Virus genome (UHGV): UHGV-0142425
Length of the DNA: 64,000 nucleotides
Strand: one strand, 5' to 3'
Source: a virus
Part shown: in pieces, positions 29,304-31,747 of the stretch
Layout: the number at the start of each line of letters is the position of its first letter
Position numbering within the stretch: the first letter of the stretch is position 1
Notes under the pieces: generated by a model
Seen by the model: the letters and a program-made list of their open reading frames with translations, nothing else
Database searches by the model: none
Told to the model about the DNA's origin: nothing
Position numbers and translations under genes: made by a program

Positions 29304-29379
29304 TGGTGGCCCCTACCGGACTTGAACCGGTGACCGTGCGATTATGAGTCGCCAGCTCTAACCACTGAGCTAAAGGGCC
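29304..29379 (-). tRNA. trnI: tRNA-Ile2 (anticodon CAU, lysidine type; formally CAT=Met)
   Basis: Manually folded cloverleaf, 76 nt with encoded CCA; closely resembles E. coli ileX. Confidence 0.75.
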
Positions 29380-29382
29380 GGA

Positions 29383-29490
29383 TTACTGTTTCCTGAGTGC
29401 TTCTATGACGCCAGCAATACCGCCTACAACTATGCCAGCAATGACAACGAGAACAATTGGATGCTTGTCAGCAAAATCCCAGAAGCCCAT
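29383..29490 (-). CDS. Small hydrophobic peptide, 35 aa (MGFWDFADKHPIVLVVIAGIVVGGIAGVIEALRKQ)
   Basis: Read manually; start overlaps stop of the upstream peptide (TGATG). Confidence 0.35.
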   Translation of the reverse strand: MGFWDFADKHPIVLVVIAGIVVGGIAGVIEALRKQ

Positions 29491-29654
29491 CACTGATCCT
29501 TCGAAGCTGTTTTAAATATCGGCCATACCAATGTTACAGCTACTGCCACCAACGCCCCGTCCGATAAAACTGACAGGATTGTGCTGGTGAAATCCACCAG
29601 CACAGATAGCACGAGAAAGACCAAAGCTAGAATTAAACGTGCTTTTATAACCAT
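29490..29654 (-). CDS. Small membrane peptide, 54 aa
   Basis: Read manually; ATGA overlap with the TerB-like gene stop. Confidence 0.35.
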   Translation of the reverse strand: MVIKARLILALVFLVLSVLVDFTSTILSVLSDGALVAVAVTLVWPIFKTASKDQ

Positions 29655-30079
29655 CAGACATACTGTTCCAGTGGCAATTGAAGAGCTTGGGCAATTTTTT
29701 TCAATTGCTCCTGCTCTTCAGCCCCAATACCATCCTGGTCGGCAATATCAATGCATAGGCACAGAACATCTACCGCATCATTAGTTCCAGACACGTCAGC
29801 CAGTTCACGTAAAGCCTGGGCATTCGCTCGGCGAGGCGAGGCTTCATATTGAGCGCGAATATTGGCACTCATCTGAGCAATTTCACCGGAGAACGGCGCA
29901 AAGGCAGGAAGTGCTGCAATGGTTTTTTCCAATACTGCAATTTCTTTCGCATCGCAGGTGCCGTCAGAGTATGCAATGGAATATGCGCCCCAGACGGTCG
30001 CTTCCACCGCATCACGGTTTTCCATCTTCTTGACTCCGCCAGCCGCTTTGCGGAATTTCTTTTTGAGAATGCCGAGCAT
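29654..30079 (-). CDS. TerB-like domain protein, 141 aa (P1 tciA-like)
   Basis: ORF track; TerB-like pattern; position in the tRNA/ban operon. Confidence 0.5.
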   Translation of the reverse strand: MLGILKKKFRKAAGGVKKMENRDAVEATVWGAYSIAYSDGTCDAKEIAVLEKTIAALPAFAPFSGEIAQMSANIRAQYEASPRRANAQALRELADVSGTNDAVDVLCLCIDIADQDGIGAEEQEQLKKIAQALQLPLEQYV

Positions 30080-30735
30080 TTATTAACCTCATTACTGGTT
30101 GGGAAATAAGGTTGCGGTGCCGGGTGCCTCCCGGTGTCCTTTGGCTGGTTATCCACCGTAGACGGGGAAACAAGGAGAAATGAATGGACTGATATAACCA
30201 TTTCCCCGCGTGCGCTTAGCCGCATTCACCGCAACGGAAAGAGCATTCCTGGTGGACCTGTAGATTGGGATATGAACCAGTTACAGGAGAATGCTCTTAC
30301 CTGTTACGTGCTCCGTTTCGTGGAGCTAACGGCGGGTGATCGGGCCGCACCAGACTGGACTTATTTCAGCGTTATGCTCATGCCAGAGAATCAAACTGTG
30401 ATGGTCGGTGCTGAACTCCGACACAGGGTTGTAGCAAGCCCCGCAAAGCGCGCACTACTGTAGTTGCGGCACATCAGCCTGTGCATTCACCACAATGTTG
30501 AGAACACTGGTTGTCACGCTGCAACGCAACATTTATTTATTCGTAGATTGGGATATGACCCCGTTACGCCAGTGTTCTCAACGTTGTAGTGCCGGTTACG
30601 GTTCCGGCCAGGCCTCTTCCTCAACGGGGTGTTCTCCATACGGACTACCGTTTATTGGTCGTTCCTGCGGTTTATGTTGTGAAGCCAGATGCTTATCTTC
30701 TGGTTGCTTCAAAGAGCTGCACTTCCTCACAACGG

Positions 30736-30809
30736 TAAGGGTACTTCGTAGGGATTCGAACCCTCTGCCAAGCTCGGCGATCTCCGACGTCGCAAAATAC
30801 CCTTACCTG
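30736..30809 (-). other. tRNA-like element: GGTTCGAATCC T-loop and GGTAAGG/CCTTACC terminal pairing but no canonical cloverleaf
   Basis: Manual folding failed for the D and anticodon arms; possible degenerate tRNA or structured RNA. Confidence 0.3.
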
Positions 30810-30815
30810 TTGTGT

Positions 30816-30891
30816 TGGTGCCGGTTAACGGACTTGAACCGCTGGCCATTCGCTTACAAAGCGACTGCTCTACCAACTGAGCTAAACCGGC
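30816..30891 (-). tRNA. trnT: tRNA-Thr (anticodon UGU)
   Basis: Manually folded 76-nt cloverleaf, anticodon loop TTTGTAA, encoded CCA. Confidence 0.7.
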
Positions 30892-30895
30892 AATT

Positions 30896-30982
30896 TGGTG
30901 GGGAGTGATGGAGTCGAACCATCCGAGTCGCAATGACAGTAGATTTACAGTCTACCCCGCTACCCCTACGGACTAACTCCCC
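30896..30982 (-). tRNA. tRNA-Tyr (anticodon GUA), class II with long variable arm
   Basis: 87 nt; anticodon loop CTGTAAA; 3-bp D stem and long variable arm as in E. coli tRNA-Tyr. Confidence 0.65.
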
Positions 30983-30987
30983 TAAAT

Positions 30988-31064
30988 TGGCGATGGTGGG
31001 TGGATTCGAACCACCGACCGACAGCTTAGAAGGCTGCTGCTCTATCCTACTGAGCTACACCATC
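30988..31064 (-). tRNA. tRNA-Arg (anticodon UCU)
   Basis: 77 nt; anticodon loop CTTCTAA; T-loop TTCGAAT; encoded CCA. Confidence 0.7.
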
Positions 31065-31719
31065 ACTTGCCGGGTACGTCTCCGGCGAGGGCTTCCACCT
31101 CCGTATGCTTTTCGGCGCGCCGCGCCCTGGCTGCAATTCGGTAACAGGGGATGCATAACCCTGGCTTCCAGCGTGATTAGCGCCTTCAGCATGACGGGAT
31201 ATACCCGTTACAAGAAATTCTCCCAGGATGCCATTAAGCAATGGCTGTTACGCTGAATGAAAAAGGACGTAACAGGTAAGGGCACTGACCAAAAGATGGC
31301 CCCTTCTCGCTCATCTGGTTAATCGAACCAGCGCCCTTACCTTGTTATGCCTCCCCGTTCCCTAATACACAGACGGGGACACTCTGCGGTCGATTTTTTG
31401 ACGGGGGACGACTCATACCCCGTGGCGTCTGGCTTCTTAGGCCGCTACCATCATCAGATCATCGTTTGCATTTACTTTAATGGTCAGTTTCTAAACCGCC
31501 GCAAAGTCGCTAACCATGACGAAAACCCTGAAAAAAACGCCCACCCGAAGATGGGCAAACTGGAAGCTCGTAACGCACTTCGGTGTTACCACTTAGGCGC
31601 ATGGTCAACCTGGCAACTCGGTGGTTTGTCTGGGAGGACTAGGCCCAGCCATGCTTACCGCCGCGCCTGTCGCGGCTAACAGCTAAATCGCTCTATAAAT
31701 CACGATTCATTGAAGCGAT

Positions 31720-31747
31720 ATTACACTAATAAATTTATTAGAGCAAT
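31720..31747. promoter_or_regulatory. Overlapping pair of C1 operators (17/17 and 15/17) at the promoter of the tRNA/TerB/ban operon
   Basis: ATTACACTAATAAATTT overlapping AAATTTATTAGAGCAAT; overlaps the dmt stop. Confidence 0.75.

Follow-up and report, generated by a model that had tools for sequence, protein, structure and literature searches.

A recombining, C1-controlled tRNA array in the ban operon of a P1-like phage-plasmid

Four tRNA genes of the window (the whole 64-kb stretch of viral DNA analysed here) are part of the ban operon of a P1-like (Punavirus) phage-plasmid, with the gene order known from P1. The order of the haplotype is Arg(UCU)-Tyr(GUA)-Thr(UGU, allele B) ... tciABC ... 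Ile2(CAU) - ban. It is one haplotype of a recombining locus, common but undescribed. The reading that we favour, with a probability of about 0.6, is that of a C1-controlled array that supplies tRNAs for codons rare in the host, possibly provides spares that survive tRNA-cutting nucleases, and evolves by modular recombination. Codon usage explains the Arg, Ile2 and Thr genes and leaves Tyr unexplained. The Thr gene, and possibly the Tyr gene, seems fitted to withstand host defences that cut tRNAs.

Results

The four tRNA genes

ARAGORN detected four tRNA genes in the window and no more; all of them are on the minus strand. The Rfam tRNA model supports all of them, with 64.7 (Ile2), 69.0 (Thr), 43.8 (Tyr) and 72.1 (Arg) bits for a gathering score of 29 bits and E-values of 5e-15 to 3e-7. 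The isotypes are those that an earlier note on this DNA had claimed.

29304-29379, minus strand: tRNA-Ile2(CAU), ileX-like
30816-30891, minus strand: tRNA-Thr(UGU), allele ThrB, with the anticodon stem of the phage 21 tRNA-Thr
30896-30982, minus strand: tRNA-Tyr(GUA), optional cassette, with an encoded CCA
30988-31064, minus strand: tRNA-Arg(UCU), array slot 1, on the scaffold of the family's tRNA-Asn

The CAU gene was labelled 'Met' by ARAGORN. We assign it to Ile2 because it is 100% identical to P1 trnI, annotated as tRNA-Ile2, and matches E. coli ileX at 68 of 76 positions; it keeps the C4-G69 and C5-G68 pairs. The tRNA identity literature gives the rules for synthetase identity elements and, for Ile2, those for TilS. 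At the sequence level, tRNA-Arg shows A20, C35, U36 and G73, and tRNA-Tyr a long variable arm together with U35 and A73. Judged from their sequences, the four genes have the cloverleaves and identity elements of functional tRNA genes, and their products would be expected to be charged.

The operon and its control by C1

Positions 29200-31800 share 95% nucleotide identity with P1 over 98% of the length. Comparison of the ORF list with the P1 annotation showed the same synteny, dmt - leader - tRNAs - tciABC - trnI - ban. Differences from P1 concentrate in the tRNA block and in a long hairpin upstream of it (hairpin B, below), while the flanks are 98-100% identical. The P1 annotation confirms that P1 carries Asn(GUU), Thr(UGU) and Ile2, as the earlier note had it, and the two sets do differ, Arg-Tyr-Thr...Ile2 in the window against Asn-Thr...Ile2 in P1.

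27654-29024, minus strand: ban, DnaB-like helicase, distal gene of the operon (ORF list and P1 annotation)
29383-29493, minus strand: tciC, hydrophobic ORF of 36 amino acids (P1 synteny)
29490-29654, minus strand: tciB, DUF3927, small hydrophobic peptide (PF13064, E=4e-30; P1 synteny)
29654-30079, minus strand: tciA, TerB-domain protein (PF05099, E=3e-6; P1 synteny)
31531-31560, minus strand: intrinsic-terminator-like hairpin with T-run in the operon leader (terminator scan), inside the 'dicF-like region' of P1
31718-31747, minus strand: Pban promoter, -35 TTGCTC at 31741-31746 and -10 TAATAT at 31718-31723
31720-31747: bivalent C1 operator Op72ab, overlapping Pban

The operator and both promoter hexamers are base-for-base equal to the annotated P1 Op72ab/Pban, which bears out the proposal that C1 controls the operon. 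Searching with the C1 operator consensus gave a perfect 17-mer at 31731-31747 on the minus strand and an overlapping 17-mer at 31720-31736 on the plus strand with two mismatches. The 'perfect double C1 operator' of the earlier note is thus bivalent, as in P1, but only one of its two 17-mers is perfect. In the whole window, nine operator-like sites were found for 0.33 expected. A sigma-70 consensus scan of the region returned no promoter; even Pban, with its TTGCTC -35 hexamer, fails the scan criteria, so this negative result does not bear on an internal tRNA promoter. The stretch annotated in P1 as 'dicF-like region' gave no match to Rfam DicF at E<=1. Weak tmRNA-like and mir-1271 Rfam matches, obtained at a permissive threshold, were dismissed as noise or generic hairpins.

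The tci genes are the TerB-like gene and the two small membrane peptides that had been noticed in the operon. A family search with TciC gave no family match, and a PADLOC scan of TciA, TciB and TciC gave no defence-system match.

In a lysogen, C1 bound at Op72ab would shut Pban. Upon infection or induction, one transcript would be made, from which, as we infer from P1, the four CCA-encoding tRNAs would be cut out.

A tRNA-Arg on a tRNA-Asn scaffold

Compared with the family allele AsnB, the first 15 and the last 32 nucleotides of the tRNA-Arg gene are identical, and all 13 differences are at positions 16-45. The acceptor stem and the T arm are those of tRNA-Asn; just the D-loop, with A20 gained, and the anticodon arm are replaced. 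We take A20 to be an ArgRS identity element, following established tRNA identity rules. Besides the D-loop, the 13 changes include three compensatory stem pairs. This pattern looks like patch gene conversion, in which swapping of D-loop and anticodon arm switched the isotype from Asn to Arg, and not like a point mutation of the anticodon. The earlier note had Tyr and Arg standing in for Asn. The Asn gene of P1 is indeed absent, but Arg alone fills its slot and Tyr is a separate insertion.

The Arg arm is generic and has no nameable single donor, because its exact 26-mer recurs in IMG/VR: about 28 further distinct tRNA-Arg(UCU) sequences carry it, and their acceptor stems are unrelated. The arm has a paired CNG motif (C28-A29-G30 / C40-U41-G42) and is without the signature of escape from the nuclease OLD. 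No Arg allele at >=95% identity was found in the INPHARED phage collection, and the allele is known solely from plasmid-filed records and IMG/VR contigs. It is present on 68 plasmids among 5,426 complete E. coli genomes, and about 12% of P1-like elements carry it.

Array configurations among P1-like elements

At least 12 array configurations occur among 74 P1-like contigs, with nearly all combinations of slot states. All copies have intact cloverleaves, an encoded CCA and their identity elements, and few distinct sequences recur over many contigs. Ile2 is invariant. Sister P1-like arrays hold an optional Ser(UGA) tRNA, which reads TCA.

tRNA-Thr alleles and the nucleases OLD and AriB

Two anticodons of the array are those of tRNAs targeted by defence nucleases, Thr(UGU) by OLD and AriB and Tyr(GUA) by PtuAB. 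P2 OLD attacks Thr(UGU) above all, and for PARIS AriB, too, it is a prime target (PMC12445682, PMC12409363). The tRNA-Thr of phage 21, tRNA-Thr21, protects cells from P2 OLD and owes its resistance to cleavage to C28U/G42A and a shortened stem, as reported in a study whose OLD screen took in 245 phage tRNAs (PMC12445682). The ThrB anticodon stem, GUCGC/GCGAA, is identical to that of the phage 21 tRNA-Thr at 10 of 10 positions (68/76 for the whole tRNAs), and ThrB has the same U28-A42 pair and G27-A43 mismatch. In contrast, the ThrA allele of P1 keeps the OLD cleavage motif (C28-U29-G30, C40-A41-G42, stem of 5 bp). The AriB cut in Thr(UGU) falls between positions 40 and 41; in tRNA-Lys, mutation of U39 abolishes cleavage (PMC12409363, PMC11555353). 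ThrB has G39 and G41 in place of U39 and A41 of E. coli thrU, flanking this cut site. Substitutions are therefore found at determinants of both nucleases (U28-A42, G27-A43, G39/G41), and on sequence grounds tRNA-Thr, absent from the discussion in the earlier note, is the strongest anti-defence signature of the array.

Of the differences between ThrA and ThrB, 7 are at the 17 positions of the anticodon arm and 6 at the 59 others (Fisher P=0.007). Such clustering in anticodon arms could arise without selection, if recombination break-points fell in the conserved blocks of the D-stem and the T-arm. In an exact search with a 25-mer of the ThrB arm, every match was in an array that has the gene order of P1, and two of these arrays were on contigs of about 108-110 kb; the link of ThrB to phage 21 and Salmonella phage BTP1 came from BLAST and direct comparison.

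tRNA-Tyr, retron-Eco7 and colicins

The Tyr cassette is a 92-nt insertion absent from P1. Its tRNA is about 88-89% identical to the tRNA-Tyr of CC31-like T4-type phages. It occurs together with ThrB in 25 of 26 loci and never with the P1-type AsnA. The earlier note rightly pointed to a report that a phage tRNA-Tyr counters a tRNA-Tyr-degrading retron effector, here PtuAB of retron-Eco7 (PMC11555353; screen in PMC12445682). A functional tRNA-Tyr under a strong promoter rescues phages from retron-Eco7 by a dosage effect that needs no changes at the cleavage site (PMC11555353). By analogy, a role against retron-Eco7 PtuAB is plausible for the Tyr gene of the window.

The link to colicins D and E5 that had also been proposed is not supported by the sequences. 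Compared with E. coli tyrU and argU, the two phage tRNAs are unchanged in the anticodon loop (CUGUAAA in Tyr, CUUCUAA in Arg) and at the A38/G39 site of colicin D, so that neither tRNA carries a colicin escape signature or a substitution at nuclease recognition or cleavage determinants. Colicin E5 cuts anticodons with G34-U35, which Asn and Tyr both have. The literature examined describes no antiphage nuclease with specificity for tRNA-Arg(UCU), though P2 OLD cleaves some Arg tRNAs in vitro (PMC12445682).

Codon usage

Codon usage of 58 window ORFs was compared with that of 40 K-12 ORFs, the E. coli reference being a 50-kb sample of the genome. The most enriched codons were AGG (5.6x), ATA (4.0x), AGA (4.0x), CGA (2.6x), TCA (2.5x) and ACA (2.5x). 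Codons cognate to three of the four tRNAs, Arg (AGA, AGG), Ile2 (ATA) and Thr (ACA), are within these top six (P=0.002), whereas Tyr codons are hardly enriched (TAT 1.28x, TAC 1.06x). Given the enrichment of AGA and AGG, codon supply explains tRNA-Arg(UCU) better than colicin D does. Several long ORFs at 41895-46959, possibly structural genes, have no AGA and 0-1 AGG, which weakens a strict need for codon supply.

Long hairpins around the array

Four long hairpins of one family accompany the tRNA genes.

30225-30320, minus strand: hairpin C, fold z-score -4.1 (-2.6 on the plus strand)
30480-30600, minus strand: hairpin D, fold z-score -6.1 (-4.0 on the plus strand)
30725-30815, minus strand: hairpin A, directly 3' of tRNA-Thr, fold z-score -5.4
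31255-31350, minus strand: hairpin B, upstream of the tRNA cluster, fold z-score -4.6, repeats I7, I11 and D20

Hairpin A contains a T-arm-like GGGTTCGAATCCC motif and shows at least five different interiors on a conserved stem across loci. Hairpin B has a conserved base stem, AACAAGGTAAGGG/CCCTTACCTGTT, and is locally divergent from P1. Hairpins C and D, with repeats D3 and I1, lie beneath the annotated upl/plp ORFs of P1. Integron attC sites were considered for these hairpins and rejected, as the end motifs do not fit RYYYAAC/GTTRRRY.

Discussion

In the reading that we favour, the array would do two jobs once Pban is relieved of C1. Arg(UCU), Ile2 and Thr(UGU) would decode AGA/AGG, AUA and ACA, codons rare in E. 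coli. ThrB, with its phage 21-type OLD-resistant anticodon stem and its departures from thrU at positions 39 and 41 beside the AriB site, and the linked Tyr cassette could survive or out-number tRNA-cutting abortive-infection nucleases, Tyr refilling the pool destroyed by PtuAB. The array would evolve by modular recombination among P1-like phages, including the Asn-to-Arg switch on a constant acceptor/T-arm scaffold. Arg and Tyr are not essential, because P1, a successful phage, lacks both.

The enrichment of AGG, ATA, AGA and ACA would also follow if the four tRNAs did nothing but top up decoding for AT-richer phage genes, with neutral differences in the anticodon stems, and TCA, read by the optional Ser(UGA) of sister arrays, is in the top six too. 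However, Tyr codons reach only 1.06-1.28x, and E. coli itself has several tRNA-Tyr genes; P1 and the window phage, at about 95% identity, share their codon usage but not their arrays; and ThrA and ThrB read the same codon, although ThrB bears exactly the OLD-resistant stem. Codon compensation as the whole explanation is accordingly unlikely. It is highly improbable that Tyr and Arg(UCU) were gained against anticodon nucleases, either colicin E5/D or a Tyr-specific retron effector, possibly together with the 'tellurite/colicin resistance' tci genes. The precedent of retron-Eco7 and the G34-U35 shared by Asn and Tyr, the colicin E5 target, speak for this origin, but the loops and A38/G39 sites are host-identical, the literature examined yielded no Arg(UCU)-specific antiphage nuclease despite cleavage of some Arg tRNAs by OLD, AGA and AGG are among the most enriched codons, and the tci proteins match no PADLOC model.

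A leader that is a hot spot shuffling tRNA cassettes (lambdoid Asn-Thr, T4-like Tyr) without selected function would account for the 12 or more configurations in nearly all slot combinations, and for the resemblance of Tyr to that of CC31-like phages and of Thr to those of phage 21 and BTP1. This is improbable in view of the integrity of all copies, the small number of distinct sequences, the invariant Ile2 and the replacement of D-loop A20 together with the anticodon in the Asn-to-Arg switch. A more far-reaching view is possible, if tentative: the array as a recombining anti-defence locus in an arms race with anticodon-stem nucleases of rival prophages and satellites (OLD, AriB, PtuAB), with two haplotype classes. 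In such an arms race, the P1-type AsnA-ThrA class may keep the OLD/AriB motifs and the AsnB/Arg-Tyr-ThrB class may offer escape-type stems plus a Tyr spare; anticodon-arm patches on a constant scaffold may create new specificities, as from Asn to Arg; and the conserved long hairpins may be processing or recombination boundaries.

Resistance genes of Enterobacteriaceae are widely carried by P1-like phage-plasmids, and P1 itself is in standard use as a genetic tool. If lytic growth in hosts with OLD, PARIS or retron-Eco7 depends on the array haplotype, the haplotype would make a simple host-range marker that can be typed, and the concept of phage tRNAs as anti-defence would reach from large virulent phages to temperate phage-plasmids. 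Because the backbone is about 95% identical, and 98-100% around the array, the ThrA/ThrB and Asn/Arg pairs are natural isogenic material for tests of nuclease specificity and of the identity switch.

Comparison with known systems

The closest relative is the ban operon of P1 (NC_005856; trnA Asn, trnT Thr, trnI Ile2), which shares the position between dmt and ban, Pban, Op72ab, tciA-tciB-tciC and trnI, and whose leader is 98-100% identical to that of the window. The window differs by Arg(UCU) in place of Asn(GUU) in slot 1 on the same scaffold, by the added Tyr(GUA) cassette and by a Thr allele with another anticodon arm. With the Asn-Thr pair of phage 21 and BTP1, the window shares the Thr anticodon, anticodon stem and T arm, as well as a spacing of a few nucleotides between genes. 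Its Thr has U and not C at position 32, and seven more differences in the acceptor stem, D arm and variable loop. Moreover, the lambdoid pair lies in the leader of a Q-antiterminated late operon, whereas the window array belongs to a C1-repressed early operon.

T5-family phages use tRNA-Tyr against retron-Eco7 and Lys, Thr and Asn tRNAs against PARIS AriB, phage tRNAs with the anticodon of the host target, as in the window (PMC11555353, PMC12409363). The window Thr is substituted at 39 and 41, flanking the AriB cut site. However, the window belongs to a temperate phage-plasmid with four tRNAs and has no tRNA for Lys(UUU), the prime target of AriB, whereas T5-type phages are virulent and have a large tRNA set.

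Stx-converting lambdoid phages carry the rare-codon tRNAs ileZ-argN-argO. As there, a temperate coliphage would supply Ile2(CAU) and Arg(UCU) in lytic growth only, for decoding of AUA and AGA/AGG. The identity of the window tRNA-Arg to argO is about 81-82% over the central part, and the genomic context is another one. Remolding of tRNA genes, or alloacceptor anticodon shift, is known from mitochondria and eukaryotic nuclear genomes. The Arg gene of the window resembles it in that, at an orthologous locus, the same tRNA scaffold is used for two amino acids, Asn and Arg, and differs from it in that its 13 changes appear to have arrived together, with a new arm that matches a generic tRNA-Arg(UCU) arm.

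Four tRNA genes in a P1-type ban operon

Over the entire 64-kb window, ARAGORN identified four tRNA genes. All are encoded on the minus strand, and each exceeded the gathering score of 29 of the Rfam tRNA covariance model:

29304-29379, minus strand, tRNA with anticodon CAU (Ile2), 64.7 bits
30816-30891, minus strand, tRNA-Thr(UGU), 69.0 bits
30896-30982, minus strand, tRNA-Tyr(GUA), 43.8 bits
30988-31064, minus strand, tRNA-Arg(UCU), 72.1 bits

The 3′ CCA is encoded in all four genes, and spacers of 4-5 nt separate the clustered Thr, Tyr and Arg genes. With 100% identity to P1 trnI and a match to E. 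coli ileX at 68/76 positions, the CAU gene corresponds to tRNA-Ile2 and not to tRNA-Met. The isotypes proposed in the earlier note (Ile2, Thr, Tyr and Arg(UCU)) are therefore correct.

Region 29200-31800 is 95% identical to phage P1 across 98% of its length. The gene order is that of the P1 ban operon: dmt, promoter Pban with its bivalent operator Op72ab, a leader of about 650 nt, the tRNA cluster, tciA-tciB-tciC, trnI and ban. The stretch carrying Pban and the operator equals the annotated P1 site at every base. Two overlapping 17-mers make up the operator, one a perfect ATTGCTCTAATAAATTT and the other with two mismatches, so that only half of the previously described double operator is perfect. 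Since the site is identical to the characterised P1 operator, control of the tRNA operon by the C1 repressor is supported, and expression would be expected to follow it. Elsewhere in the window, seven more sites fit the C1 operator consensus with 1-3 mismatches, at 16003, 18096, 18145, 21769, 35253, 49454 and 51117, with 0.33 matches expected by chance over the whole window. These dispersed matches are consistent with the P1 immunity regulon.

A hairpin followed by a T-run, resembling an intrinsic terminator, is found at 31531-31560 (minus strand), about 150-180 nt downstream of Pban. It falls inside the stretch annotated as 'dicF-like' in P1, where Rfam gave no match to DicF. Termination at this hairpin would yield a short leader RNA, and expression of the tRNAs and of ban would need read-through. 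The 5′ leader of tciA (30113-30233, minus strand) partially matches the Rfam model of the sRNA STnc100 (positions 31-147 of its 206) at 37.4 bits and E=9e-6, below the gathering score of 47. TciA matches TerB, as had been noticed from the sequence, and TciB matches DUF3927; neither matched PADLOC defence models. Some P1-like phages carry other cargo in place of tciABC between the tRNA cluster and trnI, annotated as a lipoprotein/membrane protein or a serine protease/SPFH-domain protein (phage Ro157c2YLVW, 3207-4251, and other P1-like matches). Variable cargo is therefore a general feature of the ban-operon leader.

Local replacements distinguish the array from that of P1

Alignment of the window with P1 and phage Ro157c2YLVW revealed three changes in the array. 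Apart from the tRNA block and a single upstream hairpin, identity between the window and P1 is 98-100%, so that these are local allelic replacements. At the first position of the array (slot 1), P1 carries Asn(GUU) and the window the homologous Arg(UCU) gene. As compared to AsnB, the second Asn allele of the P1-like family, the first 15 nt and the last 32 nt of the Arg gene are identical, and 13/13 differences lie at positions 16-45, that is in the D-loop, the anticodon arm and position 44. Three stem pairs are changed in a compensatory manner, and the D-loop has gained A20. The identity set of ArgRS is A20, C35 and U36. The 26-mer of the Arg arm, GGATAGAGCAGCAGCCTTCTAAGCTG, also occurs on about 28 distinct other tRNA-Arg(UCU) from IMG/VR with unrelated acceptor stems. 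The most economical reading is that the Arg gene arose by patch gene conversion from another tRNA-Arg gene, the break-points falling in the D-stem and T-arm blocks, which are near-universal. Slot 1 would thereby have switched isotype from Asn to Arg on a constant scaffold, making it a clean natural case of tRNA identity switching by anticodon-arm replacement.

The tRNA-Tyr gene and its spacer form a 92-nt insertion relative to P1; the gene is about 88-89% identical to the tRNA-Tyr of CC31-like T4-type phages. Hence, of the earlier statement that Tyr and Arg replace Asn, only the Arg part holds. Finally, the window's Thr allele (ThrB) differs from that of P1 (ThrA) at 13 positions, 7 of them in the 17-nt anticodon arm vs 6 in the remaining 59 nt (Fisher P=0.007).

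Array configurations in the P1-like family

P1-like contigs were sampled from IMG/VR using the 5′ end of the slot-1 scaffold, and 74 carried a full array, in at least 12 configurations.

Array configurations among the 74 full-array IMG/VR contigs (AsnA and ThrA, P1-type alleles)
AsnA-ThrA-Ile2 (P1 type): 37/74
AsnA-ThrA-Ser(UGA)-Ile2: 8/74
AsnB-Tyr-ThrB-Ile2: 5/74
AsnB-Tyr-ThrA-Ile2: 4/74
Arg-Tyr-ThrA-Ser-Ile2: 4/74
Arg-Tyr-ThrB, with or without Ser: 3/74
Arg-ThrA-Ser-Ile2: 1/74
other configurations: remainder

Tyr was never found together with AsnA in these 74 contigs, and it precedes ThrB in 25/26 loci. The Arg allele (≥95% identity) is carried by 83 PLSDB plasmids. Among 5,426 complete E. 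coli genomes it was found on 68 plasmids, where PGAP labels it tRNA-Arg, and on no chromosome; the INPHARED phage collection gave no record. A literature search found no description of array variation in P1-like phages. The array sequence is common and already annotated, but its architecture appears undescribed; the locus is a common but undescribed version of a known kind of array.

The tRNA-Ser(UGA) of sister arrays (P1-like IMG/VR contig L160, some 620 nt past tRNA-Thr, as well as L008, L048, L110 and L172) is of type II, with a long variable arm like Tyr. Its region departs from the window sequence directly past hairpin A, described below. A tRNA-Asn with about 83-84% identity to the scaffold of slot 1 is found on Klebsiella, Enterobacter, Citrobacter and E. 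coli plasmids of some 105-115 kb. Judging by size and hosts, our guess is that these are SSU5-like phage-plasmids, in which case the scaffold would extend beyond the P1 family.

A family of hairpins surrounds the cluster

Four long hairpins of a family of about 90-120 nt surround the tRNA cluster:

30725-30815, minus strand, hairpin A
31255-31350, minus strand, hairpin B
30225-30320, minus strand, hairpin C
30480-30600, minus strand, hairpin D

The base stem, ACAACAGGTAAGRG ... CYCTTACCGTTGTG, which includes a bulged A, is conserved among them, and the interiors vary; several interiors contain T-arm-like GGTTCRANYCC motifs. Compared with shuffled controls, their folds are far stabler (z-scores of -4.1 to -6.1), and they are stabler on the minus strand, the sense of the ban operon, than on the plus strand. 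Across P1-like loci, position A displays at least five unrelated interiors on one stem. The D-type stem shows compensatory changes and G-U pairs workable in the operon sense only. The hairpins may mark processing sites or recombination boundaries, or be stable RNAs. Opposite to the operon, on the plus strand, the P1 upl/plp ORFs (window 30134-30908) run across hairpins C, D and A and antisense to tRNA-Thr. No Pfam match was obtained for them and, because of a 4-nt indel near 30499-30548, their frames are not kept in the window and ORF boundaries differ. They may not be real genes.

Codon supply and the function of the array

Codon usage was compared between 58 long ORFs of the window and 40 ORFs of a 50-kb E. 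coli K-12 stretch, called by the same procedure. Over-representation was highest for AGG (5.6x), ATA (4.0x), AGA (4.0x), CGA (2.6x), TCA (2.5x) and ACA (2.5x), and three of the four window tRNAs are cognate to codons of this set of six (P=0.002). TCA is read by the optional Ser(UGA) of the family. Asn codons are at most weakly enriched (0.9-1.7x), and Tyr codons showed no enrichment in this comparison (1.06-1.28x). Codon supply therefore explains Arg, Ile2 and Thr well and Tyr poorly. As a caveat, AGA is absent and AGG avoided (0-1) in several long, possibly structural ORFs at 41895-46959.

Overall, we favor, with a probability of roughly 0.6, a dual-purpose array that would be switched on only once C1 repression is lifted. 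Upon expression and charging, Arg, Ile2 and Thr would decode rare codons, and the linked Tyr-ThrB module would give extra insurance against tRNA-targeting abortive-infection nucleases. Pure codon compensation is less well supported: it accounts for three of the tRNAs but leaves Tyr aside, and it cannot explain why near-identical phages differ in their arrays. Also less well supported is protection directed at colicins D and E5, as suggested in the earlier note. The loop and the 38/39 junction of the window tRNA-Arg are those of argU and its stem has a paired CNG motif, so that the idea finds no sequence support; a literature search found no antiphage nuclease precedent for tRNA-Arg(UCU). Neutral cargo is likewise a weaker reading than the dual-purpose array. 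The observation of the earlier note is thus confirmed and its interpretation supported in part. The array haplotypes of the P1 family offer a concrete, testable link to the OLD, PARIS and retron-Eco7 defences, and natural allele pairs permit direct tests of expression, charging and resistance.

Comparison with tRNA-cutting defences

Retron-Eco7 PtuAB depletes tRNA-Tyr, and any functional, strongly enough expressed tRNA-Tyr restores phage growth (PMC11555353), in agreement with the earlier note on a tRNA-Tyr-cleaving retron effector. In an independent screen against retron-Eco7, phage tRNA-Tyr genes alone were enriched (PMC12445682). The anticodon loop of the window tRNA-Tyr is identical to that of the host, which fits PtuAB rescue, for which resistance mutations are unnecessary. 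Thr(UGU) is a target of AriB of PARIS, and Asn(GUU) a secondary one; the cut falls between positions 40 and 41, and a U39 mutation in tRNA-Lys abolishes cleavage (PMC12409363). ThrB has G39 and G41, and AsnB has C39; P1 AsnA keeps UAAUCA.

P2 OLD kills by cleaving E. coli tRNA-Thr(UGU) 3′ of C28 and C40, in paired CNG motifs of the anticodon stem. Cells are rescued by phage tRNA-Thr(UGU) genes owing to an altered motif and a shortened stem, one validated case being the tRNA-Thr of phage 21 (C28U/G42A and shortened stem) (PMC12445682). An adjacent Asn(GUU)-Thr(UGU) pair, in the isotype order of the P1 array, is found in phage 21 (6592-6747) and in Salmonella phage BTP1 (221-376). In these lambdoid and P22-like phages, the pair lies in the leader of the late operon, with Q on one side and the holin gene on the other. 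The Thr genes of the two phages are identical to each other and match ThrB at 68/76 positions. The anticodon stem of phage 21 tRNA-Thr, GUCGC/GCGAA, is identical to that of ThrB at 10/10 positions (G27-A43 mismatch, U28-A42), and the two T arms are identical too. In contrast, P1 ThrA resembles the OLD-sensitive host tRNA in keeping C28-U29-G30 and C40-A41-G42 as well as a full stem of 5 bp.
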